Source: Klebsormidium nitens (Eukaryota; Plantae; Klebsormidiophyceae). From it: a stretch of 43,251 bases of DNA. Position numbers and translations under genes: made by a program. The stretch is from contig DF237628.1 in assembly GCA_000708835.1 (NCBI GenBank), positions 2,886-46,136 of the forward strand. Direction: 5' to 3'. The notes under the pieces were generated by a model that saw only the letters and a program-made list of their open reading frames with translations, was not told the DNA's origin and searched no databases. Of the stretch, positions 1 through 30,960 are shown one piece after another; within the stretch, counting starts at the first letter, position 1, and the number at the start of each line of letters is the position of its first letter.

Positions 1-2518
1 AAGGGGTCAGACGAGATGGAAGTCTGCCTATGCCCGATGACTTGATGAGGAAAAGACGCAGGTGTAGGACAGCAAAAAATGAAGTAATCAGAAACCTGAG
101 AGAACTTCAGTGACATCTTGCCAGGGCTGCAAACGTCGAAGACATGCAGCCAGAATTCAATCGACCCATAACAGAACAGCATAAGATGAAGGAACGAGCA
201 GCAAGCAACGGGCTTGGGCAAGAACTCAGACCTAGACCACAACGAGGTCCCAGATCACTTATCCATGAAGAAGTCGCTTTAGAGCGTCTGTTGACGTCGG
301 TCCAAACACTTACTTCCCCTTGACGAACTCCGCATAATTGTCTGCATTTGGCGAGCACAGCACCACCCAGCGGCCTTCACCCGGGAATTGCGTCTCGCGG
401 GGAGCTCGTCCATCTTGGAGTAGCCAGACAGAAGGGCACTTGCAGAGAGCTGTAGCCAGAGAGGACAGTCATTGCTATCGCTGGCTGATCATTGCTGGTG
501 AGCATGAGCAGAGCCCTATCACACACCACTTCGTCGATAGCAAGACCCAGAGAGAGTGCGTTGTCTTAGGTGATTACACCGTCACCTGACTTCAAGAGCA
601 AAGTGTGTTTGCATCGAGCATCAACCAACATACAAGCTTTAAAGTTATTTGAAGCCAGAAGCCAACTACACTTCGATGCCGAACAAGGGTTTCACAGTTG
701 CAATATCATGACACCTGTTTGCTTACCTCGAAGGGATCGCCAGTCAACATCGCCTTCCGAAGCCTGTTTGACATGGATTGCAGACGGATTGGAGAAATCA
801 AAGAAAAGGATGGTGTCCTTATTGATGGTGTCCGTGTACCTGCGAGGCAGACTGATAAAGTTGGGCACGTAGGGTTGGCACATAACAAGGAAGCATCTCT
901 CTCGTTGAGGAAGGCCTTGTTAGAAGCAGCGTGCTCAGCGACACAAGTCAAAGCACACAGTTACAGATTTGGCCAGCCAAGAGTGGTGTACGCGTACCTG
1001 TAGGCCACCTGTGCCCCCTGCTCTGCCAAGTGGTGCAGGAGGAGAACCGCAAAGGCAGACTTTCCGATGCCCGGGGTGCCACTCAGGACAACCGCAAAGT
1101 CGTTTCCAAGAGCCTCGAGCTTCTTCAGCACCAGGCGGTAGCACTCCCGAATTAGAATGCTGTCCTTTAGGCCTGGTGGCAATCCCTCCCTGAGCTCGGG
1201 CGGAATCTGGATGACTCCACTGGCGGTGTTCGCATGCGCGATGGACTCAGCATACTTCTGGAGCCTCTCTGGAAAAAAAAGCAAATCATCATTGTGGTGG
1301 GGACTGACCACCGGCAGATCAGACACTCTCGTGAGGATGCAAGAGTCTCCACATCAGCGAATCGCCTTTTGTGAATCGCTTTTGTGGTGGGCACTGCCCA
1401 GTGGCAAAATTTGAATTGTGCCCATGCAGAAACTCTACCACAGTCAAACAGCACCTGAAACAGCGATCAGATAGAAGACAATGCTGACAGGTGCGACAAG
1501 CGCTTCAGCACACCACGCCAACAGGTGGAGACAGGTACAAAGACTTACCCAAGACTGCAGGGTCTGTAAACCCCGCCGCTGCACACAACAGAAGCTTTCT
1601 GTCAGCAGTCCACACGCAGTGACTGGATAAGCCAACTGCAAATGCTAAGCAGGCTATGAGGTTGGAAAGAGTTTCGCTACACCGCAAAACCTTTCCACCT
1701 GCATGTTGTCATGACCCACAGAGCAACCCACCAACCTCAGGCAAACACAGATACAAAAACCCTTCTTAAGCAGCAACAATTGAGACAGATTGCCATGGCT
1801 CATTGAGCAGACACCTGAACTGCAGGCAAAGAGAGATAGAAAACCCTCTGTGCGGTGTGCCATACCACTCTCTTTGCGAAACATCGAGAAGCAGCAGGGG
1901 AATTGCCTGCAGCACAACATTGGCAGCAGAACGCCGCTCATGGTCTTTTCAAATATGTGCACTGGTTTGCTGGGCTGTTCCAAGGAGACCGCTCTCCATG
2001 CGTAAGACGACGGTAGAGATACCTGTTGTCTGCTGCAGCTTCAATTTTTCCACCTCCGCCTGCGCGAGCGCGGTCAGTCGCTGCTCCAGCGCGGCCTCCT
2101 TCTGCCGCAGCGCGGCCTTCTCCCGCTGCAAGAACTCTGTGCTCTCGCCTGCAGCCGCAGCAGTCTTGATCTGGTTCTCCACATCGTCAATCTCCTTCTC
2201 CACACGCTTGATGCTCGACTTGAGGAGCTGTGCCTCATCCTTGACCTGTTCAGCATGAGGCACGCTGTCAACCAAGTTGGAACTTCCGGGAGACTCTGCT
2301 CCATCCCGGGGAATGTCTGCTCTCGGCGAGAAACGCCTCAATCCTGACCCCACCCTGTAGTCGGAATGAAACCGGCCCAGCCTCAATCCCTCATACAGAG
2401 ATGGAGGAAGTGTCCTGAAAGCGAATCGCTGGGGCGTTGCAGGGGCAATGTCTGCCTGCCCGCGCGAACATAAAGTTTTTGCCCCAGCCACTTTGAAGAG
2501 CACTGCGGCAGACGCCAT
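1..2518 (-). CDS. Multi-exon Crinkler (CRN)/RHS-like P-loop NTPase with N-terminal coiled coil; 3' end runs off the window
   Basis: Exon near 998-1326 reads ILIRECY...VVLSGTPGIGKSAFAVLLLHHL (CRN/RHS-type Walker A context). GT-AG splicing joins AYR|YTDTINKDTILFF. A later exon reads DGRAPRETQFPGEGRWVVLCSPNADNYAEFVK (D..p...SP..y..f.K pattern), followed by LQPWQDVTEVL. The coiled-coil exon is at about 2030-2270. The start codon is uncertain. Confidence 0.65.
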
Positions 2519-4457
2519 TCACCTCACCAGTGACGTCCCGCAAAGACCAATGAATGCGGCGCCTGAGCCATTCCCCACTGCCACTCAGCCCTCGCCATCG
2601 CACTCAACTTCGATCATGATGTTGGTTGCAAAAGCTGAGGCCAGTCGCCCGAACGACCCTTGGCCCGTCCGATCGCGAGCAGCGCGCGCAAGAAGGGGCT
2701 TGCAAGGAAGAAGACTCTCGACTTCAGCATCCGAAGCGTCCAGCTGGCAGCACACTGCGGAGCTTTTTTTTTTGGCGCGCACACCAAGGGCGTTCAGAGC
2801 AAGGCGAAAGTCCTGCTTGAGTCAGCAGTCTGACTCAGGCCCTGACAAGGCCAACGCAAACAGGAGGTATTGGAAGCCCTGAACACTCAGCTCAAACACA
2901 TTCTGGAAACTCAGGCCAATGCAGCAAAGACTCAAGCAGCTTCAGTCCTGTCGCTTTGTTGGTAGCCTTCTAAAGGGTGACAATTTTCGGACAGCTAACG
3001 CAGCACTTTGGAAGGGTTAGGAAGCTTCTGCCAACGCAGCAGCCTGCCAACAAAGCAGAGGCTGCAGCTTTTTTGGATCATGCACAGTAATCGACTGAAT
3101 CCGCGTACTCATGGGATGTAAAGGGGCAATCTTTTGCTTTAATCCTTTCATTTGCAGATGAGCTTTTCCGGGACTCCCCTTCTTTTCAAATCTCACTCAT
3201 CTTTCCAAACGCCTGCGAGTATGGTCTACAGACACGCCGCCTAGAGTCGATGGTCCTTTTAGTAACCCAGATACCGCCTGCCATCATGGTAAGTCTTATG
3301 CTACTGAGACCTAGTGTAGCCTAAGCTAAGTCAACCCTGTGAAGCGCAGACTTGATGCTGACAATCAGCAGCTGAAGCTGATCAGGCTGTGAGCCTGACA
3401 GAGCTCTGGTCACATAAAGCTGGCTGGTTGCGTATGCCAGCTGAGCTGCCATGTCTTTCGACATGCACCTGCCTTGGGATTGGTGAGTGCTTTTCTGGAC
3501 AGCACTGGGGCTGGAAAGTGATTGGGGATCAGAATTGCAGACTGGGAGATGGGCGTGATGAGAGCGGAGTGACTATAAAGGCACGTGTTTTCAAAAAACG
3601 GTCCAAATATTATACTAGTGGTCAATCTCTAGTTGAGTTGCAGAGTTGCAGAGTTGCAGGATCAGCGGGGAAATGTTTGCGTCTAGTTCTGTCTAGGTCT
3701 GAACGCACTCAAGTATAGTGCAAGCTAAGATGCTCACAGGTATTCTGCTCATGTGTACAGTGATGTGTCAGAATCAGAAGGGACCCAAGGAGAGGACATC
3801 GAAGGTGCTGAGTATGCTGATCGATCTGTCGATGGATCTCAGTCTGGACAGTCACTACAAGGTTTCTTTGACGATCAAGATTCTGGCAGCATACAAGGTC
3901 CAAGCTTCTACTGGGCTCTCAACAATGAGGTTAGCGTCAACCCAGTCCAGTGGGCTTTTGGGTCCTACGAAATGACTTGCACGCACCATGTTGGCTTGAA
4001 AGTCTGTGTCTGAGATTTACACCAGGGTGTCTGCGCATTCTCTTGCAACTGCCTCGTGCAACATTGGTACCCGTTTATGCAAAACTGACCAGTGTCTTCT
4101 GCTGTCAAGCCACTTCTGGGTTTGCTGTGCTGTACAGGGTGTTTCACCCACCTCTCCGGTTGCCAACTGGTCTATCAACAGCGCTTTTAGAGAGCTGATT
4201 CCTGTATCACCGTCAAACAGATGCAAACGCAAGGTACGAACTGGATTGCGAAAAGCTGAGAGACATGAGCAACATGATGCCAGCGCAATTTGTCTCGATG
4301 CGACTTCGTTGGGTTGCTAAATCTGGTGTGCCGCTAAGGCACGCGTGCTTCGCAGCTGAAGCAATCTTGGCTTGTCATCAGGAAGGCGCCTGGTGACGCT
4401 GATTGATGGTGGACTGAAGTCCACACCGATCAGGCTTGTTGCGTGTCCTCTTTGCAG

Positions 4458-7400
4458 TCCTCCAACGGTGAAGGCGAGCGCTGCCCAGAAGGAGCTTGTC
4501 TCGAGGAGGACATTGTTGGGGTGGTATTCACAATGCGGGCGCTCGAGAGGAAGCGACGCCGTCCGATTCTCTCTCAAGAGATAGAGGAGGCGGAGGAGGA
4601 GCACGTGCCAACGCCGCAACCATTCTCACATGTGAGCCGCTCGTTGGTATGCTTGAGGAGCTCTTGTGCCCTGCAATATCCAAGAGAACTTAGGCACTCC
4701 GCCCTCTACAGGCTCATCGCGACTTTCATGTTGGCTGGGCGGAAAGTCCTGCCCCTGGTCTACACCTTGTCATTAGAATTAAGGAATCCAGACTTCTACC
4801 ATTTGCAAGGTGTAGGCCATAAGCAAGCCCGACCATACAGCCGTTGGCAAGAATGACGGTGGGCACGTGCCCGTCTCTGGTCCACACCTTGTCATTGGAA
4901 ATAAGGAATTCAGTCTTCTGTCGTCTGCAAGGTGGGCCATAAGCGAGCCCCTCCCCACAGTACGTGCCCCGCCTCTGGTCCACATCTTGTCATAGGAAAT
5001 AAGGATATCAGTCTCCTGCTATCCGCAAGGTGTAGCCCAAAGCAAGCGGTATTCGAAAATGAGGGTATGCTCGAATGCGAGTGTCCAGTGTGTGCTTCAT
5101 GCAGGTACTCGAGAGGGGCCAGGATGTGCGCTTGCGGCTTCAGGGGAACCCCGCTGAGGATCTGAGTAGCGCAGCAAGCCCACCCCCCGATGCAGAAGCT
5201 GGCAAGCACAGCGCAGCCCCCAACTTCGATCCGCCTTCTCATTCGGCGACCTGCGCTTCGGTTGGAGATGTAAGTCCCGATTGTGCAAAGACACTCAGTC
5301 TCGTCAAACTTCCAGTGTTGCACCTTGTCGATCGACCTGAGCTTACGGAATCTGTTTGGACCAGGCCATGCAAGCTCGATCCAAAGCGCAGATGGTGGGC
5401 AAATATCGGGTCCACACCTTTCATTGGGGATTGGGAACCAAGTTAATTGCCAATCGCAAGGTGTAGGCTATAAGCAAGCCCGACGAAAACCCGCGGTTCT
5501 CAGAGCCGAAAATGGGCATGCGTCATGCTTCTTGAGAACCGGGTCTACACCTTGTTATTGGAAGTAAGGAATTCAGGCTTTTGCCATCTGCAAGGTGTAG
5601 GCCACAAGCAGGCTCGACCACACCCTGCGATATTCAAAGCCGATGATGGGCACTTCCCTCTTCTTTCTGTTTTTCTCAACAGTCCACACATCGTCATTGG
5701 TGCAGACATTGAGTCTCTCCCCATCTGCAAGGTGTGGACCATATGGAAAGGGGGTTTTTGCTCGACGCTCATCATATGCGTGTCCATGTGTGCAGGAACT
5801 TGGCGTGGCAACAGGCGATGGTCATGATGTGTGCCAGCAGTCCACGGGATCCGCTGCAGGGGAGCTACATGTGAGTTGGACCATTTACTGATTCTCGATG
5901 CCGGAGGCTAGATCCGCCATCGTCTGCGCCAGGCTTAGGCAGTCTCCTTGACGCACTTGTAAGTGCTGCAAAGTAAACGTGCTCAAAAAGGCGCCTCGTC
6001 TGTGTCCCAGGTTCGTTCAGAAAAGCGAACGGCACTGCTACTCTCAGGTTCCATTCGACCACTTCGAGCCTCTTAATCGCATTGCAGTAATATTCCGTCG
6101 TCTAAAGTTGCCTCATATCTATGCCGGTTGCCCCTAAGCCCCTCGCCTTCTTCTTCTTGTGCAGTACATGGGCCCTTCCCCCGCTCCTCCGCATCCTGCC
6201 GATGAGCCTCGCTCTGCTGCTACGGAGCCCACACCTTCGGTGAGTCCACTTGCGAGGACCGCTCAGCTCCTTTTCCCACACGGCAGAGCAGTGCAAAATA
6301 AGGTACTTTAACCAGCCCGCGTGGTACAAGTGGTTGTACAAGTTCCCTTCCTCGATCCAGACAAGAGCTCGCTTGTATGGGGAGACCGTTCACTGTCAGT
6401 AGGAGGATAGGATCTGAAACGAGTTCCTTTTGGGGCTGGAGGCGCTTGCATACGTCTTGCTCAGTCCTGACCGGCCGCTTTCGACAACCTCACAAGGGAG
6501 CCGTAGGTCTTCCTCGTGGCAGTGGTCGTGCACAGCTTCAATATTTGAGCACTCACCCCTCCGCCATAGTGCTTCCCCCCAGGTTAAAGCAGCAAGGCGA
6601 TCAGAATCTTGGGTGCCAAAGGCTCGTCAAACGGTGAAGAAGAAATCACAGTGAGCTAGTCGTCCCCTCCTTTGTCATCTCGGGCTAGACTCTTGCCAGT
6701 GATCCTCGTTAGGATTCAGTCTGATCGGGTCACTGAGCCCACAGAGGCATCTTCATCCGACATAGGGACCTGGTGTCGACATAGGGACCTGGTGCATGCT
6801 TTTGTTCCCAGGGTAGCAAGCCTGTGGCTGAGGAGCTTTGGCCCGGCACTGACCTATTTCCTTCTTGCTTCACCCACAGCAAGCGTGCGAAGCCGATTTC
6901 TGCCCCAGTGGACGAGGCGGCTCGTGCAGAGATCCGGGCGGCTCGTGAGGCTCACTTCCGAACTTTGGAGGGATTGAAGCTTCAACCAAACGGGCAAGAG
7001 GTGCGAACGATTCTGGCTAACCTCGGAGTTCCGCTTGCAGCCCTTGCAGGCCCAGTTTTCAGTGTTGTGACTCGGGTTTAGCCTTGGTTTTTGTGGTTAG
7101 AGTTCCTCGCTGCCAAGGTGCAGCTTCCCGTGCACATCTCTCTGGAGATTGCTGAACTCCTTTCTGCCGTTCACCTAGATTCGACTGCGATGTTAAGCAG
7201 TCCAGATGGCCATTAACAGCCGCCACCTTAAGAACTGACGGAAACACGCGCTTGCTTCTTTTCGTAGGTGATGGCGCGGCCGATGTCCGAGGCGCAAGGA
7301 GGGGGGCATCAAGCCCCCCAAGAAGCAGTCGCGGCAGAGGCACTTGGCGAGCGCTCGTGCGTGGACGTGACGGTGGCCGAAGGCGGCGAGGAGGACCAGC

Positions 7401-10400
7401 AGGGTGGCGAGTGAGCCTTTGCTCTTGAATGACTCGTCAAGTCCGTGCCTGTGAGTGCAGGGCGTCTGATCATCATCAAAGACGTTCTCAGAACAGCAAA
7501 ACGTCCTCACGATGATCGCCAAGGTTATCACTCGCATACTTCCGATCGTCGCAGGCACCTCGTTGCGGCGGTGCGACAGTCCGTCCAGCACAGCCCATGG
7601 GAGGCGCTCAGGCAGGCTGAGGTGAGGCTAACGGTTATTAGAGAAGGCACGTGCTACGTTGTTAGAGGCTTTCATAGATTCATCAACGGGAAGATTTGCG
7701 GGACTGGCCTGCAGGGCCAGGCGGGTGTCAGGACCGTTCATGAGGGGTAAGGCATGCGGGGTCGGGTAATGCATCAATATCAGCGTCAGGCTTGGGTCCC
7801 ATTTGTTGGGTCAGACTAGGACGCAAGCTCGAGCCAGAGCGCGGATGGGCATGGTAGGCACGTGCCTTGCCTCTGGTCCACACCCTGTCGTTAGAAGTAA
7901 GGAACCAGCCTTTTGCCATCTGCAAGGTGTAGGCCATAAGCCAGCCCGGCCACACAGCGGTTGGCAGAATCGATAGTAGGCACGTGCCCTGCCTCTGGTC
8001 CACACCTTGTCTTTAGAAATAAGGAACCAAGCCCTCTGCCACTCGCAAGGTGTAGGCCAAATTAAGCGGTATGAGGGTAGGCTCGGATGCGAATGCCAAA
8101 TTCCGTGTGGACTTTACGCAGGAACTCGAGAGGCGCCAGGATGCGCGCCAGCGGCTCCAAGGGACCCTCGCCGCGAATTCCAGTGACGCATCAAGCCGGT
8201 CCCCCGTTGCAGAAGCCGGCGAGCCCAGCGCGGTCCCCAACTTCGATGCGCGTTCTCGACTCGCGACCTGCACTTCAATTGAAGATGTAAGTTCGGGTCG
8301 TGCAAAGGCATACGATCCCGCCAAACTCTTTGCCAAACTCTTTGCTTGACCTGAGCTACAAAGCCTGGCTGAACCATGCGATGCAAGCTCATCGACAGCG
8401 CAGATGGTGGGTGAGGGCCTGTCTCTCCCTTTAAGAGTTCGGTCTACACCTTGTCATTGGAAATTAGGAATTCAGCTTTTCGCCATCTGCAGGGTGTAGG
8501 CCATAAGCAAAGTCCGACCACGGCGCGCTCGGCAGACAACGAGCACGCAGCTAGTCTCTTCTCGTTGCCTGCTTGTTCGAAACCATGGTTCACGCCCCAA
8601 CTCTGGTATCAATGGGTCGCGTTTTTGGTCAGCTGCAAGGTGTGAACCAGAAGAAGCAATCTTCGAACTCTCGGCGCACGATGACAGGATCAAGTGCTCA
8701 CCTGTTCTGAACATGCACGCGTGTATGTGCAGGATTGTGGGGCAAGAGTGGACGAGAATCAGAGTACGCGCCAGCAACTCCCGGAGATTGCCGCTGAGGA
8801 TGTGATCAGCGCAATCACCCTGCAGAGTGCCGTGCGCCAATCGCTCCGGGGGATTGCCGTTGGAGTTGTCAGCCGCGCAGCAAGGCCGTCCTCTGTTGTG
8901 GATGCTGACCATCCCAGCATAGCCCCAAACCGAAACGAGCCTTCCCTCGAAGATGTAAGTTTCAACTGCTCGAAAAACGCATTGATGACTGATCGGATCA
9001 GGCATCACATTCTCTGTGTATGCGCGAAGTCCAAAGAGATCCTCTTCCTCCTTGTGTTTAGGCTTAATGAAGGCCTTCAGGATCCGCCTCCAAGAGATTG
9101 GTCACGTAGGGAGTGACTGTGCTCTGATCCCTGTCCTCGAAGCCGCCATCCTCTTTGAACTCCTCCACCAAGGGCGGCCAATCCAATACACTCGTATCAC
9201 CGCACCGGCTTGTTGGATGCAAGCTCGAGTCTGAGCCGGATGGCTATGGTATGCATGCGCCTCCGGTCTACACCTTGTCATTGGAAGTAAGAAACCAGTC
9301 TTCTGCCATCTGCAAGGTGTAGGCCATAAGCGAGCCCCTCCAAAACGAACGTGCCCGCCTCTGGTTCATATCTGGTCCATACCTTGTCATTAGTTCTAAG
9401 GAACCAGTCTTCTGCCATCTGCAAGGTGTAGGCCACAGCAAAGGGTGTTCTGAAAATCGAGGGCAGGCACGTTTGTGAGTGTTTGATTCCAGCATGCGCA
9501 TTTCTGCAGAAATCTGAGAGAAGTCAGGATGCGCGCCAGCGGCTCCAAGGGATCCCCTCCGACGATCTCAGCAGCGCAGCGAGCCTGCCCCCCGGTGCAG
9601 AAGCTAACGAGCCCAGCGCTCCCCCCGACTTCGACCCGCCTGCTCGGTTTGCGACCTTGGCTTCAGTTGAAGCTGTAAGTCCCGGTTGTGCAGAGACATT
9701 TCCATCCCGTTTGCACCTTGTCAATGGACATTCATGAGCTTCTGTAACCTGTCTGGGCCCTGAGATGCAAGCTCGATCGAAAGCGCAGAAAGTGGACGAG
9801 GTCTGTCGCTTCATATAGGAATTGGGAGTTGGTCCACACCTTGTCAATGGAAATGAAGAATCCAGTCTTTCACCCTTTGCAAGGTGTAGGCCAGAAGCAA
9901 GCCCGACCCTGGCATGCTCAGCACACAGTGAGCACGTACTTGTCGACGGGCAGCTAGCCTCTTCTCATTGTCGGCTCATTCAAACCTATGTTTTACGCCC
10001 TAATCTCGGCACCAATGAATACCGTTCAGCTGCAAGGTATGGACACAAGGAACCAAGCTTTGAAACTGCGGCGCATGTTTGCAGATCCGAGTGATGACTC
10101 GCTCTGACCGTGTATGCGTGCATGTGCAGGATCCTGAGGCAGGACGGGGCGAGGGCCACGACGAGCGCCAGCAGCTCCAGGCGATCGCAGATGAGGATGT
10201 CAGCCGCGCAACCACCCCGCCCCTCGATATAATGGCCGGCCAACCCAGCACAGCCCCCAACCAAAACGAGCCTCCTCGATCTGGGAACGAGGCTTCGATC
10301 GAAGATGTAAGTCTCAACCACTCAGAAGACGTTTACTGATGACCGATCAGATCAAAACGCATATGCGCCGCCTCTGGTCCACACCCTGTCCTTGGAAATA

Positions 10401-10797
10401 AGGAACCCAGTCTTTTGCCATCCGCAAGGTGTAGGCCATAAGCAAACCCGACAACACAAATGATTGGCAGAATTGCTGATGGGCACGTGTCCTGCCCCCG
10501 GTCCACACCCTGTCATTAGAAATCAGGAACCCAGCCTTAGCCATCCGCAAGGTGTAGGCCAACGCAAGCTCTTTTCGGAAGATGAGGGCAGGCTCGAAAG
10601 CAAGTTTCTGATTTCCAGCGTGCGCTTCGCAGGAAGTTGAGGGGAGCCAGGACGAGCGCCAGCAGCTCCGGGGAATTGCCGCTCAAGATTTCAGCTGCGC
10701 ACCCATATCGCCCCCTGTTGTGGATGCCGGCCAACCCAGCACAGCCCCCACCCGGAACGACACTTCTCGACCCCGAGATCAGGCTTTCGTCGAAGAT
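4458..10797 (+). other. Series of phase-0 exon cassettes, the probable N-terminal extension of the AEP-helicase gene
   Basis: AG...GT-bounded stop-free segments with lengths divisible by 3: 4458-4631, 5105-5269, 5796-5870, 6165-6239, 8122-8286, 8733-8954, 9510-9674, 10130-10306, 10633-10797. Four are exactly 165 nt and homologous (QDxRQxLQG...P..D..|GTAAGT). The AEP exon also begins in phase 0 (cag|GAT at 11284). Splicing is inferred, not shown. Confidence 0.55.
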
Positions 10798-13225
10798 GTA
10801 AGTCTAAACCCTCAGAACACGTTTACTGATGCCCAATGTGATCACATGTTTATGCGAAGTGGAGACAGATTTTCTTTGTCAAATAGCACGTCGTTGTCTT
10901 CTCCATTGTGGACAGGGACGTCTTCAGGATCCGTTTCCACAAGATAGGTAACATAGGTAGGGAGAGAGCCCGGATCCCGGTCCTCGAAGTCGCCATCCTC
11001 TGCGAACCCCTCGAACAAGGGCGGCCAACCGTTTTTGCATCACCGCGCTTGCCTATCTGACGAAGGTCGTCGATCTGCCCAAGCTGCTTCACGGAGCAGT
11101 CTTGTCCTGTCGCAAAGCATTCGGTCGTTGCGGTCAAGCTGAGTCAGATTTGGCACCAGTACCAGCTGTTGCGGTTGGAGACATGAGATTCTGCCTTTCT
11201 TCAGATTAGCGCTTCTTTAAATACGATTCCCGCAGCCGCTGTATGTCTCCCAGCAGTGACACGGTCTGGTTTCTTTCGTGCAGGATGCCTCATCAGTGGA
11301 CCCTCGCCTGTGCCCCGGCGAGATTGTCGTCCACAGCGAGCACGACGGGAAGTTGCTGACCGTCAAGAAGGCCGAGCTAGGCACCTTCCTCTTCGCCAAG
11401 CGCAAGTTCGACGACAAGGTCGACTACCAGGACGCGAAGAACGGGCCGCAGGGTTGCTGCCGTCGTTACGGCGAAGTGCTCGGCCATCAGGTCGAGATCC
11501 GGCGCCTGCGTCCCTCCCGGGAGTTCGGGTCTTACCCGGATTGGCCCTCAGCCTATCCCAAACTGCGCGGCGAGCCTCATCTGGAGGAGGCCATCAAAGC
11601 GGGGTGTCCCTGCAAGCCGTACCTGGATCTGGAACGAGACGGGGGCCTGCCGGATGGGGAGACCCTCGAGACGGTCATTGACGCCTTCGAGGGGGCGATC
11701 ACGGGCATCTTCGAATCGGAATACGGCCAGGAGCTCTCAAAGGAAGCCTTCAACTGGATCCCCTGTGATTATGGGCCGGGTGGCAAGTTTAGCCTGCACC
11801 TGGTCATCTCCTCCCACTCCCCCCAGTTTGTCTACCGCTCCAACCTGGCGCCCCCAGCGGACCCCCAAGGAGCGGGGCATCTCGCGAGAAAGCTCAGCCA
11901 GCTCTTGCCCGACCGCTACGCCGAGCTCATCGATCAATCGGTCTACACCAGAAACCGGGGGATCCGACTCCCCTTCTGTTCCAAACCCTCTAATCCTCGC
12001 AGCCGCCTGATTCCCTTGGACGAGAGTAAGCCGTACGCGGATGCCTGCATCACCTGGTTCGATGACCACGTGCAAACGATCAATGTCCCCGACGTCCTGT
12101 TCCGAGCAGTGCGCTCTCGCGAGAGGCCAGAGAATTCAAGCCACCTAAACCCCAAAGCCGCGAGCATGTATGAGGTGCAGCGGTGCACGGAGCTCATCCA
12201 GAATCTGCACCCAACGGCGTACCGCAGGGGGTCGGCGAACTCGCTGAACTACAGCTGGCACGATCGGAGCGAGCCGTGCTACTCGGGTAACGTGCATGCC
12301 GGGGGGCGGGACATCCTCTGTGTCGCGGATCGCGAGAGGAACGCCGTGTTCGCGGTGTGCAGCAGCGAGCGGTTCGATCCGGAGACGGGTGTGTGCTGCA
12401 AGGACCTGCCGGCCAAGTACCTTGGGCCGTACTGGGTGGACAACAAGACCTGGAAGGATGGTGCTGTGGAGATCGACATGGAGTACTTGGATCGGGACCC
12501 GTTGGCTGCCGCACCCATGAATCTGGCGCTGATCCGCGCCGGGGTCAGTCCTCTGACCGACAAGGTCGTCTTCAACGACATCGTGAACAAGTGAGGCCGT
12601 GCACTCATGCTTACAAGCCGTCGACGTGGCAGTGTTGCAGTGTCGCTTTTGTCAGTGCCGCGAGTCTGGCCGCTGACCAGTCCCTCACTTGAAGATTCTG
12701 GTAAACGGGTCCACACCTTGTCGTAGGAATGAAAGAATCCAGGCTTTTGCCACTTGCAAGGTGTAGGCCAGGTGCTTTGTGGGTATTTCTACAAAGAAGC
12801 GGTTGCTGGGCCGATTTAGGAAAGGCTTGTGGGTATAAAATTGGCTTGAATGAGTGGCTGGAAAGTGCGAACGGGCCCACACATCGTTCTTGGGATCTAA
12901 GGAACACAGTCATTCATCACCGGCAAAATGTAGTCCACTCTGACGATGAGAACAGGCTGCTTGATCAGTCATGGAAGCAGCTTTGTGAATTTGGAGTGGC
13001 TGGAATAAGTGGCTGGAACGTTTGAACGGGCCCACACCTTGTCATTGGAATTAAGGAATCCGGTCTTTCGCCATTTGCAAGGTGTAGGCCACAGGCAAAC
13101 TAGACCGCACCACCGCGACTGGCAAAACTGACACATGGGTACGTGGGCACATGCCCCGCCTCTGGTCTACACCCTGTCATTGGATATAATGGATCCAGGC
13201 TTTTGCCTTTTGCAAGGTGTAGGCC
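4757..13225 (+). repeat. Family of about 17 co-oriented 60-62 bp palindromic repeats (GGYCYACACCYTG-N35-36-CAAGGTGTAGGCC)
   Basis: Copies start at 4757, 4879, 4977, 5409, 5542, 5681 (degenerate), 7875, 7997, 8441, 9265, 9374, 9831, 10376, 10500, 12708, 13029, 13164. Right-arm-only remnants lie near 8637 and 10033. The arms are 13-14 bp inverted repeats. Confidence 0.95.
11284..12590 (+). CDS. Archaeo-eukaryotic primase (AEP/PrimPol, NCLDV/herpes-like) exon of a primase-helicase fusion
   Basis: Motif I YLDLE, motif II FSLHLVI and motif III IDQSVYTRNRGIRLP, plus a Cys/His-rich C-terminal region. The ORF stop coincides with a donor (AACAA|GTGAGG at 12590/12591). Splicing to the acceptor at 13318/13319 is in frame (N-K-W-L-E-G-R-Y). 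Confidence 0.88.
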
Positions 13226-13318
13226 ATATGTGAGGACAGGGATTCTACCGTTTCACTTTTGCTGGTTGACCGGCTTCGAAAGATGGAATCAAGTGTTCTG
13301 TCTCACCCCTTCGTGCAG

Positions 13319-15457
13319 GTGGCTCGAGGGCCGGTACAAGGCTCTGCCGATCAGGAGTCCCATGGGGAGCGGCAAAAGCACGCTTCTCGCGGCTCTTCTC
13401 GCCGAGGTCTCCAGATTCAAGAAGGTCTGCATGATCACTTACCGCCGCACGCAAGCTCTCGATGCGGCGAGCAAGCACCAGGCGTTCTCCCACTACGAAG
13501 ATCTCAAGCAGGCGGATGGACGTATGCTCGGCGATCGCTTCATCCCCCCTCTCGCCGACCGGGAGCTCCATCCCCGCGTCATCGTCCAGCTCGACAGCCT
13601 GCCCGGGCTGATCCCTGAAGACGACGAAGACGCCCCCGCGTTTGACCTACTCGTTCTTGACGAGAGCGAGTCGATTCTGGCGCATTTCTCGGCGGACACG
13701 CTTCGCGAGAGGCACAGAGTCATTCAGCTCCTTGTCGAGATGATGAGAAGAGCGCGGCGGATCGTCTGTCTGGACGGGCACTTGGGGCAACGGACGTACG
13801 AGTTCCTCACGATGAACGAGATATCATACTCCCCCGTGGTGATCAACAAGCATGCTCCTGAGAGGCCCCTCGAGATTGAGTTCCTCCAGGGCAAGAACGA
13901 AGGGCTTGCCAAGTGGGAGGGGGCGATTTTCGAGGCGCTGGGGGCTGGTCGCAACGTCTTTGTTGCGAGCATGTCCTCGGAAAAAGCGCAAGAGTTGGGG
14001 GCGACGGTCGTGGAGCGGGGTCTCGTCGAGGGTGACCAGGTCCTCATCATAACTCGCCACTCGGACGGTGCAGTCAAACGAGGGCTGCAGGATGTGAACA
14101 GGCAGTGGCGGAAACGGCTCGTGATCATCAGCCCCACGGTCGAAGCAGGCGTGGATTTCAACCAGGACTGGTTCCATCAGATGTTCTTGTACGTCTGCCA
14201 GAAGAGTACGCACCCGCGGGGACTCGACCAGATGAAGGGGCGTGTTCGGAAGTTGGCGAATCCACGGGTCTTGTGTTATGTCCAGGAGGGCATCTGGCTG
14301 CCAGTCGAACCGGGGCCATCAGGGGGTGGGTCCTCGAGGGAGACGAGCAGGTCGGGTAGCAAGGCAAGGCTGGGGGTCGAAGAGACCTACCAGTGGTTCC
14401 TCAATCAGAATTGCAGGGGCGGGCTGAACTGTGTGCATCCGATAACCCGACTTCTCGCTCACAACGAGAAGGAGATCTTCAACGGGCAGACGCATTTCTG
14501 CGAGGAGTTCACAGACTTGCTGCAGGCGGACGGACACGTCATCGTCAAGAACGTTTGCGTTGACGAAGAGGCGGTCGAAGTGAACGCGGGCCCATCAGAA
14601 GAAGGGGGGCGTGGGGGCAAGTATCTTCTGGAAGAGATGATCAGCGCCCCAAACATCTCGCATGCCCAATTCGTCGACATCGAACGGCGTTCTCGAAAGT
14701 ACGAAGATCGCCCAGGGGAACCGTGCAGATGGAGAAATTTCAGCTAGCACGGTTCTACGACGTCCCGTACCTCAGCGAGGAGTTCTTGCGAACCTTCGGG
14801 CCGAAGCCGATCCATGCCCTCGACTTCCTGGAGCAGGTGGTCGACGAAGACTTCAAGTACGACAGAAACGAGATCGGGCGGCACATGTACCCGCCTCAGA
14901 TGACAGCCATGGCCAGGGAGCTCTTGACGGTCATGGGATTCGAGCACGCGCTCGATGCTGCCCACGAGACCGATACTCTTAGCACAATGAGATCGCGTCT
15001 GGCCGGAACGGCCTTCTTTCGGAATTACTCGGAGAACGTCAAGCTGTTCCATCATCGAGCAGCTAGCGTGTCTGACGTTCTGGTTTATCAGAAGACGGCC
15101 ACGATTGCTCTGAACCACGTCTTCTCGGCGTTAGGGTTGCATCTCGAGGCAAAGAAGCTCGGCAGATTGGAGGTGAGGGATGTGCAGAGGGCGGAGAATG
15201 GAAACCGGAAACGGCTGTACCGATACGGAGGCTGGTTCCTGTCGCGAGAACCTCTGCGGACGACTCGGCCCGTGCAAGGGCCCCCGGGGGTGAACCTGAT
15301 GTGCCAATTGTTCAAGCTTCGTCTGGCGGATTCGGAGACTCTCAGGGAGAGGGTTCCGCCGGCTCTGCGGGAGTACTTGGACGGGATTCCGTTCCAGTGG
15401 CCGGAACTCGTCCAGCACAGGAGATGTGGTATTATTGTGGGTCCAGGAGAGGAGTAG
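13319..15457 (+). pseudogene. UL9-like replication origin-binding SF2 helicase exon, with one apparent frameshift at about 14720
   Basis: SPMGSGKST (Walker A), ITYRR, LLVLDESES (Walker B), IISPTVEAGVDF and DQMKGRVR are motifs typical of herpes UL9/NCLDV origin-binding proteins. The reading frame shifts at GAA CCG TG CAG ATG, continuing as QMEKFQLARFY to the stop at 15457. Confidence 0.82.
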
Positions 15458-15518
15458 AATGTCGTCGACAAGAACCCAAGTCTGAAATGCAAGTCAAGTG
15501 ATTATAGGCTACCCTGTA

Positions 15519-15825
15519 GTCCGCACGTTGCAAATGATATTTGGCGATACTTTCTTGGGAATTGTGGATGGTGTAAAGTATTGGGGATGGTGTGGATCAA
15601 CTTTATAGCTTGCTTGTTGTCTTGTATCATTGTAGTCTTGTTGGTGGTACTCACAATAATCGGTCGTCCTGTGCTGTAGTTGATGATAGGAGATGCGCAT
15701 TCATACAATGATTTCTGCTTGCCTTTTGCCTTTGTTGGCAGCAACTATAACAGGGGTTTGCTTGTGGTCTATACTGTGCAAGTCGTCTAGGACTAAATCC
15801 TAACAATCAATTGCAACGTGTGGAC
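15519..15825. repeat. 15-bp inverted repeat pair flanking a 277-bp spacer; arms related to the 62-bp palindrome family
   Basis: GTCCGCACGTTGCAA at 15519-15533 and TTGCAACGTGTGGAC at 15811-15825, with 1 mismatch. Confidence 0.7.
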
Positions 15826-16141
15826 CGTATTGTGCAATTAACAATGCCGCATGCAAATGGCTTGGTTTTGCAGACTTGCCGCCTAAAGACTGAAGTCGCT
15901 GTATGGTGGTAGCAACTCTCGGAGCCTATTTGAGCACATTAAATTACCCTCTTTCGCGGAATCGCATGCCGGGATATGATGAATGTAGGCTAGATGGTGG
16001 TAGTCTTTGAGCATGAATCCACCGCATGTGCGAGGAATAGCACTATGAACCCGAGCCTATACATGGCACTTGTAAAAGCGGTTTGATTGTATACATGGGC
16101 CATCGTCCACTTAAGCGAACGAGAGACCGGACTCTCTGCAA

Positions 16142-19273: not shown

Positions 19274-19384
19274 CGAACGAGGCTTCACAAGATCCCGAAC
19301 AAGCGCCGCGTTCTTTTTCGACAAAAATTTTCTGGGGTTGAAACTTATAGGGGGCTCTTGACCCTTCTTCGGTCTTTGAAAAAC

Positions 19385-21390
19385 ATGACAACGGGTTCGA
19401 TTGCCAGTGTGTTGGAAGCATATGCACAAGAAGGGTTGTACGCTGTCCCCGCAAACGTGAGAGCAAAGGACGGATTGAAGCACATTATAACGATGCCTCA
19501 TACAAGAGGCGATGACGCTATAAGATCGGCCTCTGATTGGAGAGCGGCGGGAGGCCGGATTACGCAATTCATTGAAAAAGAACGATACAACTTTCTGGCT
19601 GTCAAGACGGGGGCCATTTCGGACATCTTCGTGCTCGATATTGATGTACGAGACAAACCGGAGAAAGATCTTCTAGCTGGCATGCCACTCTGGAACGAAC
19701 CGATTGCTGAGCACGGAGAGCCAGACACCTTGAAGGCCGTTTCTGCTAGCGGAGGCTTTCACTACTATTTTTCATATGGTTGTTCCATTAGAGATGGGCT
19801 TCAATCAGGAAAATGTTTTGCTGGAATTGATTACAAGGAGCATTACTTTGGCATAGACGCACGTGGAGATGGGGGCATCGTTCTGGCTCCACCGGGCTCA
19901 CCTGGAATCGGGTTGAGTTATACATGGTGTTCGAAACCCATAAGAAGCAGCATCAGAAGCGCTCCATCATGGCTAATCAAATTTCTCAATGATTCAACCG
20001 GGAGGTCTTTCAAGAGGAGTCTCGCGTCGGCCTGCAACAAGATCCAAGAGCAAGCAGTGGACGGCTCCGAGCTCGAGCAAACAAGGGGGCTCGAATCGAG
20101 CACCGTTGAAGAAGATATGCAAGTAGAGGTGGATATCAATGTCCCCCACAATACACAATCACTTGAGCACGAGAAGATTGCTGACGCTATGTTGAATCTA
20201 CTACAAGACGCTGGGCTCGCCACGAATGTTCGATTTTCTGGCAATGTGACCTTCCGTGGTCCGTACGGTATGCTCTATTCATTCATCTGTGACGGTCCCA
20301 GAACATGCATCCATGGCCATCATCATAACGGTAGCAACAATCTGACTCTTGTGAAGCGAGGGTGGAAGATCTTCTACCGTTGCTTTGGCAACGATTGCAC
20401 AGACAAGCCTCTCACGGAGCTTGGAAATATTCCAATATCGATCTCATTGTTGGATGCCAATCCAGTACGCTTGCACCCCACTCATGATTGGAGTACCTTT
20501 CCAAATAATATAAAAACGTTGTCAAACGATGCTGTGGAAGCACAGATGACACTCATTAGGCGGAACATGACGCAACGCTACCGCGGACTAGCGGCAATCT
20601 TCTCAGCTATATGTCTCGTTGACGGACGCGTCATCGCCGAGGGGAAGTCCTTTCAATACTGGAACGGTCGTCGGTGGATCATCGACAACGCGTTCCATAT
20701 ACAAGCCGTGTTTAGTAACCACATGGCTCGTATTATACACTGGTATTCGAACCAGAGACTGAATGCTTTCAAGCGAGAGATTTGTGCACATATAAGAGGC
20801 TCTGCAACACGGCATAATGCTTCGTCGACGATAGAATCAGCCCTTCCAGACTGGGCATTTGATCCAACTACCGATGAAGAAAGAAAAGCATGCAGTACCG
20901 CATGGAGGGTAGTCAACAAAACGTATCCTTTCCCAGCAAAAAGCGATCTGGTGGATCTAACACGGGGATCTGAGATCCGTGTGTGCCTCGAATTCGTCAT
21001 GAATTCCTTGCAAGCTCCTCAATCTCTGAGCGAGCTGATAAAAATTGCCAATCCGTTATTGTTCGCCTGCGCTAACGGTGTCATAGACACCCAAACGGGA
21101 AAGTTGCTCGCCTTTCATCCTGCTCATCTGTGTTCACGTGCGTCGAAAGCGACTTTCCGCGGAATGCCAAAGGCCGGAAGCCGATTTGAGAGGTTTTTGC
21201 TTGATTGTTTCAACGATGACAAAGAAGTTCTCGAATGGTATCAGCTCTTCTGCGGCTATTGCATGACCGCGGACATGAGCGAGCAGATTTTTCTTGTCAA
21301 ACAAGGCGCCGGATCTAATGGCAAGTCGTTGACAAAACTGGCAAGTCTCGAAGTTCTTGGGAGCTACGCTGTTGTTATGTCCGACGATTG
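19385..21390 (+). pseudogene. 5' part of a bifunctional Prim-Pol + D5-like SF3 primase-helicase, interrupted by the KDZ transposon
   Basis: Prim-Pol motifs AVKTG, FVLDIDV, SGGFHYYF and IDARGDGGIVLAPP. D5_N motifs FQYWNGRRW and FACANGVIDTQTG. Walker A GAGSNGKS. The frame breaks right after GACGATTG. Confidence 0.9.
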
Positions 21391-21540
21391 GAGTACACAT
21401 TAATGGCGGGCGTGAATACCAAAAAGGTGTCTTTCTGAAGTCATTCTGGAGGCATTCACGTGAACTTCTTTTACTCCCTGAATGAAAGGGTGCGCAGGCA
21501 GCTATACTCACCTGCCATCCTCTTCGACCATTCCCATGCC

Positions 21541-22730
21541 TTCAAACATTCAGGATTCAGATACGGTCTGAATCCGCCATGAATGAATGCATGTAAGTGC
21601 GCTCGANNNNNNNNNNNNNNNNNNNNNNNNNNNNNNNNNNNNNNNNNNNNNNNNNNNNNNNNNNNNNNNNNNNNNNNNNNNNNNNNNNNNNNNNNNNNNN
21701 NNNNNNNNNNNNNNNNNNNNNNNNNNNNNNNNNNNNNNNNNNNNNNNNNNNNNNNNNNNNNNNNNNNNNNNNNNNNNNNNNNNNNNNNNNNNNNNNNNNN
21801 NNNNNNNNNNNNNNNNNNNNNNNNNNNNNNNNNNNNNNNNNNNNNNNNNNNNNNNNNNNNNNNNNNNNNNNNNNNNNNNNNNNNNNNNNNNNNNNNNNNN
21901 NNNNNNNNNNNNNNNNNNNNNNNNNNNNNNNNNNNNNNNNNNNNNNNNNNNNNNNNNNNNNNNNNNNNNNNNNNNNNNNNNNNNNNNNNNNNNNNNNNNN
22001 NNNNNNNNNNNNNNNNNNNNNNNNNNNNNNNNNNNNNNNNNNNNNNNNNNNNNNNNNNNNNNNNNNNNNNNNNNNNNNNNNNNNNNNNNNNNNNNNNNNN
22101 NNNNNNNNNNNNNNNNNNNNNNNNNNNNNNNNNNNNNNNNNNNNNNNNNNNNNNNNNNNNNNNNNNNNNNNNNNNNNNNNNNNNNNNNNNNNNNNNNNNN
22201 NNNNNNNNNNNNNNNNNNNNNNNNNNNNNNNNNNNNNNNNNNNNNNNNNNNNNNNNNNNNNNNNNNNNNNNNNNNNNNNNNNNNNNNNNNNNNNNNNNNN
22301 NNNNNNNNNNNNNNNNNCTCGAACCACATAAGTGCCCAGTGTCCCAGCTCGTATGCTTTCAAACATTCAGGATTCAGGTACGGCCTGAATCCGCCATGAA
22401 TGAACGCATGTAAGTACGCTCGCTGCACACTTGAAGTGCCCAGAGTTCAACTCATGCGCCTTCAAACATTCAGGATTCAGGTACGGTCTGAATCCGCCAT
22501 GAATGAACGCATGTAAGCGGGCTCGAACCACACAAGTGCCCAGTGTCCCAGCTCATGCGCCTTCAAACATTCAGGATTCAGGTACGGCCTGAATGCGGCG
22601 TGAATGAATGAATGAGTCCAAGTGCGCTCGCTGCACACAAGTGCCCCGAGTCCCGGGTCGCATGCCTTCAAACATTCAGGATTCAGGTACGGTCTGAATC
22701 CGGCATGAATGAATGCATCTGAGAGTTGCT
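21541..22730 (+). repeat. Left subterminal tandem array (unit about 103 bp) with GGATTCAG-N7-CTGAATCC palindromes
   Basis: TTCAAACATTCAGGATTCAG recurs at 21541, 22358, 22461, 22562 and 22667. The array spans the N gap. Confidence 0.9.
21607..22317. other. Assembly gap (711 N)
   Basis: Run of N flanked on both sides by the same tandem repeat unit. Confidence 1.
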
Positions 22731-30604: not shown

Positions 30605-30960
30605 GTTGCAAGCCACAAAGAAGCCGTTCAAAACAGTGAAAGCGATTCTCGAAATGACAAAATCTGCAAGTCAGGCTCCCCTTTTGTACCCAGGACTCGG
30701 TTGCCAGTCTTCCTTGGCAGTCTGGCTTTAACAACACTAGTCAGACTGCTTTCGACGAACAGCGTGTTTCGAACCTGGAATTCCATCGAAATCGAATCGG
30801 GAATGAACATCGGCATCGACATCGAATGGCAGGATTCAGCTGAACGCAAAGCTTTGCAAGTCAAGTCTGGTTGGTTGAGGCTTGAAGAATCAAAGTAGGT
30901 TTGATCCGCGTCAATTGTTCTTCGCAGAAGGATTGTAAAACAGCAACAATCTCAGCGCCA

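Follow-up and report, generated by a model that had tools for sequence, protein, structure and literature searches.

Tandem exon-plus-intron units and intronic hairpin repeats in the front part of a virus-type primase-helicase gene of Klebsormidium

How does a eukaryotic gene come to carry a row of similar, in-frame exons with palindromes between them? We addressed this question in a 43,251-nt stretch of contig DF237628.1 from Klebsormidium nitens (the window). A sequence-only reading had described its region 4458-11290 as integron-like, with phase-0 exon cassettes separated by palindromic sites upstream of a replication enzyme. We found that this region belongs to the 5' portion of an expressed and spliced algal gene that encodes a primase-helicase of viral type. 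Multiplication of the exons that code for its N-terminus was probably due to unequal homologous recombination among tandem units of exon plus intron, the palindromes being intronic hairpin repeats that were copied along with those units. Real exons, their in-frame joining upstream of the primase-helicase, a tail with no predicted fold, and the gain or loss of units over evolutionary time are what stands of the earlier interpretation; site-specific recombination at the palindromes is not supported.

A spliced gene with a repeat-built N-terminus

The best-matching gene models for the locus came from Klebsormidium nitens, and the start at 3463 agrees with the N-terminus of P0024, the closest annotated copy.

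3463..15457, + strand: whole gene, 18 exons (open frame across the joined exons; GT..AG junctions in RNA-like contigs)
11284..12590, + strand: primase exon, archaeo-eukaryotic primase of PrimPol/giant-virus type (family profile against human PrimPol structures, E 3.4e-12)
13319..15457, + strand: helicase exon, UL9-like SF2 (Pfam Herpes_ori_bp, E 3.2e-21; profile against origin-binding protein structures, E 3.7e-15)

An acidic, structure-poor N-terminus of 689 residues precedes the PrimPol-type primase exon and then the UL9-like helicase exon. The joined exons upstream of the primase run for 689 codons without a stop. Structure prediction returned a pTM of 0.14 and called no secondary structure, and 72% of the residues in this tail are disorder promoting, in agreement with the disordered N-terminus that had been proposed. 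The primase profile (A3) matched the PrimPol chains 5l2x and 7jk1, and its nearest Atlas clusters were Nucleocytoviricota AEP_C962R/Herpes_UL52. Residues D115, H172, and D217, which we take to be the acidic/histidine catalytic motif positions, were invariant in 13 of 13 aligned sequences. These matches place the predicted primase in the archaeo-eukaryotic PrimPol/viral clade. Likewise, the Herpes_ori_bp score (75.6 bits against a curated cutoff of 20) assigns the predicted helicase to the UL9-like SF2 group; near 14.72 kb, the reading frame of the helicase exon breaks in this copy.

Thirteen exons lie between 4458 and 11290.

4458..4631, + strand: unique exon, 174 nt, phase 0-0 (RNA-contig junctions)
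5105..5269, + strand: cassette exon A1, 165 nt (junctions in 4/4 RNA-like runs)
5796..5870, + strand: exon B', 75 nt, a B-type cassette of which the first 25 codons remain (alignment with the beginnings of B2 and B3; RNA-contig junctions)
6165..7621, + strand: five non-repeat exons, 6165-6239 (75 nt), 6583-6650 (68), 6880-7000 (121), 7268-7410 (143), and 7555-7621 (67) (RNA-contig junctions)
8122..8286, + strand: cassette exon A2, 165 nt (RNA-contig junctions)
8733..8954, + strand: cassette exon B2, 222 nt (RNA-contig junctions, cassette alignment)
9510..9674, + strand: cassette exon A3, 165 nt (junctions in X9 and X15)
10130..10306, + strand: cassette exon B3, 177 nt (RNA-contig junctions)
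10633..10797, + strand: cassette exon A/B4, 165 nt, a chimera (111 diagnostic columns)

Exon lengths and splice sites first read from the sequence were fixed by the RNA-contig junctions, and the earlier description was confirmed. Nine exons have a length divisible by three, phase-0 borders, and no stop codon, as claimed, a set that includes the non-repeat exon 6165-6239; the four asymmetric exons (68, 121, 143, and 67 nt) had gone uncounted. The four 165-nt copies and their 222- and 177-nt relatives were recovered as well. B2 owes its length to an internal 22-codon insertion that repeats an RQ.L..IA motif. Across 15 pairs of cassettes, dN/dS ranged from 0.43 to 1.19. The codons have evolved near neutrality with frame and splice sites retained. 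The cassettes are not shared with other genes: a search of 1.84 billion representatives gave only nine matches at an E value of 0.001 or better, the five best each consisting of one cassette that reads through into intron.

All of the cassettes enter a single spliced mRNA. In RNA-like contigs taken from several studies, all predicted exons were joined in order via GT..AG junctions; of 24 junctions, 15 were listed, and 12 of those 15 were consecutive GT..AG junctions. Exon 4458-4631 is delimited by 4231>4456 (cut +2) and then 4631>5105; the latter and 5269>5796, which bound A1, were present in all four RNA-like runs. The borders of A2 are set by 7619>8120 (cut +2) and 8286>8733, those of A3 by 8954>9510 and 9674>10130 in runs X9 and X15, and the primase-helicase intron by 12590>13319. 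Between 7000 and 11400, seven GT..AG junctions were listed, all connecting neighboring exons; X9 and X15 contained 7/7 and X5 contained 4/7. The DNA run X1 contained none of these junctions, even though its contigs cross the introns.

Hairpin repeats in the introns

The palindromes are real. The motif of their right arm occurred 21 times at up to two mismatches against an expectation of 0.27, and none of 100 shuffles reached 21. A profile scan (nhmmer) recovered 18 full hairpin copies on the + strand, from 4755 to 13235, plus remnants. All 18 share the orientation of the gene and are confined to it within the 43 kb, with no full copy in the remaining ~31 kb of the window.

4755..5045, + strand: three hairpins (4755-4830, 4877-4948, 4975-5045) in the intron before A1 (nhmmer E 1.8e-23, 3.5e-21, 3.3e-19)
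5407..5750, + strand: hairpins 5407-5481 and 5540-5615 and a partly decayed one, 5682-5750 (nhmmer)
7873..8065, + strand: double-hairpin module (7873-7946, 7995-8065) ending ~57 nt before the A2 3' splice site (nhmmer, unit alignment)
8440..8655, + strand: hairpin 8440-8513 and a "half-site," 8588-8655, with left arm decayed and right arm retained (nhmmer E 3.9e-22 and 5.9e-4)
9263..9445, + strand: double-hairpin module (9263-9335, 9372-9445) before A3 (nhmmer)
9830..10044, + strand: hairpin 9830-9904 and right-arm remnant 10027-10044 (nhmmer, unit alignment)
10374..10568, + strand: double-hairpin module (10374-10448, 10499-10568) before A/B4 (nhmmer)
12706..13235, + strand: four hairpins (12706-12775, 12872-12942, 13027-13100, 13162-13235) in the primase-helicase intron (nhmmer)
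15756..15827, - strand: weak inverted hairpin copy at the 3' untranslated end (nhmmer E 2e-6)

Each unit carries one to three hairpins upstream of its cassette, the last ending 56 to 94 nt before the cassette 3' splice site. The proposed order of two palindromes, exon A, one palindrome, a half-site, and exon B describes units 2 and 3, but unit 1 has extra hairpin copies. By unit alignment, each half-site is a second hairpin that has decayed, with only its right arm retained. The profile scan found no hairpins in the introns of the five non-repeat exons. The intron 12591-13318 holds no cassette exon but four hairpins, which the earlier reading had missed, so the hairpins are more than a mere part of the cassette unit.

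Origin of the exon array

Seven exon-plus-intron units align collinearly, each with a leader, hairpin 1, a spacer, hairpin 2, the 3' splice site, the exon, and the start of the next intron. It follows that the palindromes were copied together with the exons. Units 2 and 3 (7819-8823 and 9215-10220) are 69.7% identical over 1,041 nt, through exons and introns, and a three-unit alignment was collinear too. Two units, A and B, make up a higher-order repeat of ~1.4 kb. One large-scale breakpoint could be mapped. A/B4 is A-like to 10643 (65 diagnostic columns A-like, 4 B-like, 10 neither) and B-like from 10664 (25 B-like, 3 A-like, 4 neither), which puts the switch within exon 10633-10797, ~85 to 100 nt beyond the nearest hairpin. 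This sole mapped breakpoint speaks against the palindromes as breakpoint sites. Unit 1 shows a register shift within its hairpin array, where 4750-4945 matches 7868-8068 at 81% and 4872-5484 matches 9258-9907 at 71%. These two events, one in an exon and one among hairpins, are too few for a pattern.

The closest annotated copy has the modules in another arrangement. P0024, a paralogue or another strain's orthologue, has the order e0 e1 e2 B' e5-e9 A B B' e5-e9 A B A/B, against e0 e1 e2 A B' e5-e9 A B A B A/B at 3463-15457, and junctions in RNA agree with both orders. The exon types are shared, number and order differ, and the frame is intact; units have thus been gained or lost over evolutionary time. 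This is the part of the claim of cassette gain and loss without frame breakage that held; the part concerning exon skipping found no listed junction in three RNA-like runs. A close copy, P0035, is 88% identical in exon and 88% in intron read-through, again in line with weak constraint on cassette sequence. In copies further removed, at 70% identity, the N-termini are unrelated. Both the collinear homology of exons with their flanking introns and the variation of unit number and order with frame kept are what tandem exon duplication would be expected to leave in the sequence.

We propose that out-of-register homologous exchange or replication slippage would occur at any stretch where units resemble each other, including the hairpin arrays. 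Selection may act mainly on the open frame, so that the downstream primase-helicase is still made, and the encoded tail would be an acidic, disordered spacer that tolerates change. A separate constraint probably acts on the hairpins, which likely serve as a cis element close to the 3' splice site.

Two results count against tandem duplication as the full account. One is the presence of hairpins in the cassette-free intron. The other is the conservation of hairpin 1: pooled over 21 unit pairs, hairpin 1 was 84.5% identical (1,108/1,311), compared with 65.9% for exons and 54.6% for other intron sequence, a degree of conservation that passive co-duplication alone does not predict. It is plausible, if tentative, that selection keeps the hairpins as a functional cis element, be it a structure in the pre-mRNA close to the 3' splice site, a precursor of small RNAs, or a protein-bound DNA site. 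In every unit pair, hairpin 1 was 78 to 92% identical against 43 to 74% for flanking intron; the right arm is almost invariant across the 18 copies, which are uniformly sense oriented and confined to this gene; the expected stem folds in 16 of 18; and double modules end 57 to 84 nt before 3' splice sites, including that of the noncassette helicase exon. Yet none of 12 stem pairs showed compensatory change, left-arm changes being uncompensated, and folding energy had no sense/antisense bias (sense more stable in 11/18, mean difference -0.8 kcal/mol). Rfam gave no family match at the gathering score in the window, with one chance-level match elsewhere in 4400-13400 (E 0.54), and neighboring copies are sometimes most alike (0.89 to 0.90), which is compatible with local gene conversion. 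A related idea is that hairpins guide the choice among symmetric exons skipped in combinations, yielding N-terminal isoforms. All cassettes are phase 0-0, so skipping would preserve the frame, and a hairpin ends 56 to 94 nt before the 3' splice site of each. Nevertheless, we consider such a device improbable: the seven junctions between 7000 and 11400 all join neighbors in up to three RNA-like runs, with no skipped-exon junction listed (contigs can miss rare isoforms), and the odd junctions 8954>5796 and 5270>8831 fit the exon order of P0024. Minor skipped isoforms are possible, as contigs drop rare variants.

Mobility of the hairpins was also weighed. A MITE-like or introner-like element could have spread into, or created, introns of the gene family, with cassettes as by-products. 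The 13-nt inverted arms fit such an element, as do RNA and DNA contigs that end at hairpin borders (9830, 5740/5741, 13226, 9328) and continue into other flanks; one such copy has mutually reverse-complement flanks, indicative of a longer palindrome at another site. Moreover, the primase domain resembles those of giant viruses, which mostly lack such introns, so introns here would be secondary. We think this unlikely given that inspection of 18 copies by eye revealed no target-site duplication, that copies in a single orientation occupy matching places in collinear units and are missing from the rest of the window, that viral and metagenome collections gave no matches, and that the other flanks may simply be paralogous copies of the same gene. 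Doubtful, too, is a bolder version in which a 62-nt hairpin with a short tail is a self-propagating intron module that intronized a giant-virus-derived replication gene and is still adding in-frame exons. The position of each double hairpin, ~60 to 85 nt ahead of a 3' splice site, would then reflect that it supplies or defines this site, and selection on it would be stricter than on the exons. Extremely improbable, finally, is a dedicated recombinase that inserts, excises, or reorders exon cassettes at the palindromes. Every cassette is flanked by hairpins, cassette order differs between copies, and the cassettes are all in-frame modules. But integrons have an adjacent integrase, the tyrosine recombinase IntI, and recombinase (tyrosine or serine), integrase, and transposase families were absent by Pfam from 150 of 180 stop-to-stop ORFs of at least 90 aa and from 34 ORFs scanned earlier (intron-split genes can escape). 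Integrons also place one attC hairpin at each cassette end as the recombination point; here there are one to three upstream hairpins per unit, others in a cassette-free intron, and an exon-internal breakpoint at 10643-10664. Nor are the cassettes separate promoterless genes, being exons spliced GT..AG into one reading frame, in units whose collinearity extends across entire introns, as simple tandem duplication would leave them.

Relation to known systems

Unequal crossing-over that duplicates exons in tandem is familiar from repeat-built proteins such as human LPA with its two-exon kringle IV-2 unit, nebulin, and mucin-type arrays. As in those arrays, in-frame exons were copied with their introns, the higher-order unit has two exons, copy number and order vary between copies, and the two events located here lie where units are alike. 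In contrast, the Klebsormidium repeats encode an unfolded acidic tail instead of a folded domain, and each unit bears an intronic hairpin better kept than its exon. The likeness to bacterial integrons (IntI integrase, attI, attC hairpins, gene cassettes) is one of picture only, modules parted by imperfect, hairpin-capable palindromes; this locus is a eukaryotic spliced gene whose modules are exons of one mRNA, with variable hairpin numbers and no integrase in the scanned ORFs. With MITEs and introner elements the hairpins share short length, inverted arms, intronic position, and some copies with other flanks in RNA and DNA contigs, but not target-site duplications (by eye), and they differ in single orientation and collinear positions. 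The catalytic part resembles giant-virus and herpesvirus PrimPol/UL52-type primase and UL9 helicase, whereas both domains are here fused in a nuclear, 18-exon, multicopy gene with a long repeat-built N-terminus. Giant-virus-like genes in Klebsormidium have been published (PMC5294986).

As the integron analogue fails, the strong claim cannot be upheld. Left standing is a transcribed, well-documented protein tail built by tandem exon duplication in a multicopy virus-like primase-helicase gene, in a streptophyte alga from near the lineage of land plants. The notable feature is a hairpin in the introns whose conservation exceeds that of the adjoining coding exons and which, within 43 kb, is restricted to the introns of one gene. 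If the hairpin has only been homogenized by gene conversion, the locus is ordinary. If it takes part in splicing, gives rise to small RNAs, or spreads introns, the locus would bear on how endogenized viral genes gain introns and coding sequence.

Exon structure and product of the primase-helicase gene

None of the sequencing runs was recorded as RNA; we labeled runs as presumed RNA because their contigs carried GT..AG junctions that were absent from the DNA run. Such junctions were carried by Logan contigs of five presumed RNA runs from several studies (X5, X9, X14, X15, and X17). Contigs of the DNA run (X1) were continuous through the introns, with none of these junctions. The following exons were set in this way.

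Exons set by contig junctions
5' group, plus strand: 3761-3929; 4138-4233; 4458-4631; 5105-5269; 5796-5870; 6165-6239
Middle group, plus strand: 6583-6650; 6880-7000; 7268-7410; 7555-7621; 8122-8286; 8733-8954
3' group, plus strand: 9510-9674; 10130-10306; 10633-10797; 11284-12590; 13319 onward

The first coding exon is 20 nt long and starts at 3463. The first junction (3480-3761 area) was listed as TG..AC because the contig came from another copy, which reads ..WDSDV.. as in P0024, the closest annotated homolog. The window's own first intron is GT..AG at 3483-3760 and yields ..WDCDV.. at this point.

Joined together, the exons before the primase exon provide 689 stop-free codons. Nine of the 13 exons in 4458-11290 have a length divisible by three and phase-0 borders, in agreement with the symmetric phase-0 exons, at least nine, claimed from the sequence alone; the other four measure 68, 121, 143, and 67 nt. 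The four 165-nt exons and their 222-nt and 177-nt relatives are also as that reading described them. Its suggestion that alternative splicing might vary the N-terminus fared less well. All seven GT..AG junctions listed in 7000-11400 connect adjacent exons (7/7 in X9 and X15, 4/7 in X5), and no exon-skipping junction was among those listed there for RNA-like contigs, which rare forms can escape. Dscam-like mutually exclusive exons were dropped because every exon was included together.

The predicted product joins a PrimPol-type primase to a UL9-like helicase. The family profile matched human PrimPol (E = 3.4e-12) within the part encoded by 11284-12590, and solved structures of herpesvirus origin-binding proteins (UL9; E = 3.7e-15) within the helicase part. 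Pfam returned Herpes_ori_bp on 13104-14744 (E = 3.2e-21). In a protein atlas, the primase exon adjoined clusters of Nucleocytoviricota AEP_C962R / Herpes_UL52 primases (score 0.95, 204/256 features). Based on these matches, the replication enzyme proposed downstream of the cassettes is real.

The window is eukaryotic. For the 436-residue open reading frame (ORF) at 11284-12591, 23 relatives are similar in length and 11 are longer; those with an organism name, at least nine, are all Klebsormidium nitens gene models, several of them named replication origin-binding protein. Identity to the window is never complete, the top values being 90% (P0024) and 89% (P0001). Loci related to the primase exon were found among neither metagenome nor viral contigs. 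Within exon 13319-15457, the helicase frame is broken near 14.72 kb: frame 0 has a stop at ~14747, and the +2 frame stays open for ~245 codons to 15457, matching the C-terminus of P0025, an intact copy. RNA contigs of several runs (14375-15762) are gap-free across the break, which is either a recent frameshift in the window copy or a read-through frameshift.

Origin of the cassette array

The six full cassettes comprise type A exons (5105, 8122, and 9510), type B exons (8733 and 10130), and a mixed exon (10633); the exon at 5796, 75 nt long, is a shortened B type (B'). In a self-comparison, homology extended past the exon borders, with 7819-8823 matching 9215-10220 at 69.7% over 1041 nt and comparable matches to 4858-5484. 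Seven units, each an exon with flanking intron, aligned collinearly throughout: leader, hairpin 1, spacer, hairpin 2, ~60-90 nt, 3' splice site, exon, and the start of the next intron. The A and B units are thus ancient duplicates of a single unit of ~0.6-0.7 kb, and together an A-B pair makes up a higher-order repeat of ~1.4 kb. The half-sites of the sequence-only reading are decayed second hairpins of B units, with the right arm kept and the left arm lost. Tandem Repeats Finder reported neither the hairpin arrays nor the cassette units. Introns after B-type exons have a 107-nt piece in common (9075-9181 and 10922-11028, 80% alike), the minus strand of which is open and coding-like; X5 contigs lie over 9027-9322, and 8475-9101 (minus strand) had no Pfam match.

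The best explanation for the exon array is that its exon-plus-intron units would have multiplied by plain duplication in tandem and by unequal exchange between homologous copies. Frame and splice sites would have been preserved by selection because the catalytic domains lie downstream. We examined the last unit at 111 diagnostic columns where two A units agree, two B units agree, and the types differ. Up to 10643, 65 columns were A-like, 4 B-like, and 10 neither; from 10664 on, 25 were B-like, 3 A-like, and 4 neither. The switch from A to B thus falls 11-31 nt within exon 10633-10797, a distance of 85-100 nt beyond the closest hairpin. In addition, the three-hairpin array of unit 1 matches unit 2 (4750-4945 versus 7868-8068, 81%) but aligns with unit 3 one hairpin out of step, as would be expected of out-of-register exchange between direct repeats.

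Comparing cassette order across copies, as had been proposed from the sequence, revealed that P0024 (1235 aa) is arranged differently from the window.

Order of exon blocks (e) and cassettes
P0024: e0 e1 e2 B' e5-e9 A B B' e5-e9 A B A/B
Window: e0 e1 e2 A B' e5-e9 A B A B A/B

The P0024 order agrees with two unusual RNA junctions, 8954>5796 and 5270>8831 (with inserted letters). P0024 is either a paralogue or another strain's orthologue. In copies of ~70% identity (P0025 to P0028), the acidic N-termini are unrelated and lack these cassettes. A ..GG(V/I)E(S/P)NPGW.. motif in the N-termini of P0025 and P0026 resembles the 2A ribosome-skipping motif but has W in place of its P.

The dN/dS comparison likewise proposed for the cassettes gave 0.43-1.19 across 15 pairs (0.49-1.02 within types). 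P0035, a close copy available solely as an ORF that reads through, is 88% identical to the window over both exon A1 and the intron after it. The N-terminus had been described as disordered, and it is predicted to be so: 72% of its residues are disorder-promoting, its net charge is -48, and a cassette folded with five relatives gave a pTM of 0.14, a mean pLDDT of 63.5, and no secondary structure. A six-cassette profile matched only 9 proteins among 1.84 billion representatives at an E value of 0.001 or better. The five best were single cassettes with intron read-through, and the remaining four were weak, multi-stretch matches in long proteins. Given so few matches, the cassettes are private to this gene lineage and not modules shared among genes.

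The integron-like architecture proposed from the sequence failed every defining test that could be made. Pfam scans of window ORFs (150 of 180 ORFs of at least 90 aa, plus 34 ORFs scanned separately) found no recombinase. The rule of one site per cassette is not obeyed in the hairpin profile, the mapped breakpoint lies within exon 10633-10797 and away from the hairpins, and the supposed cassettes are instead exons of one mRNA joined at GT..AG junctions.

Surroundings of the gene

A giant-virus-like insert may adjoin the gene at 16000-37000, where GC falls to 45-49%. An intronless 709-aa ORF with Prim-Pol and D5_N domains lies at 19274-21400, and pieces of a DUF3987 protein lie at 29479-30670 (minus strand). 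No close relative of the D5-like neighbor turned up among viral contigs. The 711 N at 21607-22317, either a gap or a withheld stretch, account for a low-GC bin and for the six-frame open ORFs at this place. Upstream (300-2520, minus strand), a neighboring gene has a coiled-coil-like exon and a P-loop that matches STAND NTPases weakly (nSTAND3, E = 1.2e-5, below the cut-off). PMC5294986 reports core genes of giant-virus type in Klebsormidium genomes, a D5 helicase among them; what PMC10530073 says about a K. nitens Fanzor has no bearing on the primase-helicase locus. Our literature search found nothing on the gene family, the exon array, a Klebsormidium hairpin repeat, or introners in Klebsormidium.

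Conservation and distribution of the intronic hairpins

Segment identities, pooled across 21 unit pairs, differed among parts of the unit.

Pooled identity by segment
Hairpin 1: 1108/1311, 84.5%
Exons: 1800/2730, 65.9%
Hairpin 2: 831/1285, 64.7%
Other intron: 1917/3514, 54.6%

Hairpin 1 was 78-92% identical in 21/21 unit pairs. The right arm is nearly invariant, and changes in the left arm are uncompensated, with 0/12 stem pairs covarying. The expected stem formed in 16/18 copies on folding, without a sense/antisense bias (the sense strand was more stable in only 11/18). The hairpins matched no Rfam family, and a tRNA/tmRNA search returned nothing. A snoRNA or miRNA cluster was dropped because there was no family match and the stem is only about 14+3 bp.

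Within two mismatches, the right-arm motif occurs 21 times against 0.27 expected, always between 4757 and 13225. A hairpin profile found 18 full copies in eight introns, all on the plus strand, with remnants at 8588, 9714, and 10027. It also found a weak inverted copy in the 3' untranslated end (15756-15827, minus strand, E = 2e-6) and none elsewhere in the 43-kb window. In several runs the RNA contigs stop at 15756-15821, as they should if a repeat interrupts assembly. The cassette-free intron between primase and helicase (12591-13318) holds four copies, and its position is common to 8 of the 20 homologous ORFs listed, whose last residues coincide. The 3' splice sites at 5105, 8122, 9510, 10633, and 13319 each follow the end of a double-hairpin module by 57-84 nt.

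One alternative is that gene conversion conserves the hairpins: some adjacent copies are mutual closest relatives (0.89-0.90), a likeness that fits some local conversion. Another is an origin from a mobile element. RNA and DNA contigs break at hairpin borders and continue into other flanks, so there are copies elsewhere, possibly only in paralogous genes. A hairpin pattern search yielded 0 matches in viral and 0 in metagenome contigs, and a minus-strand ORF spanning two hairpins returned 92 candidates as a protein query, 0 of them significant. Some RNA contigs sharing the hairpin (loose ends at 9830 and 5740) have left and right flanks that are mutually reverse complements, pointing to a longer palindromic family member elsewhere in the transcriptome. 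The best-kept part of each unit is the hairpin, a feature that passive co-duplication would not predict by itself, and we lean toward the view that it is under its own constraint, as a cis element close to the 3' splice site.
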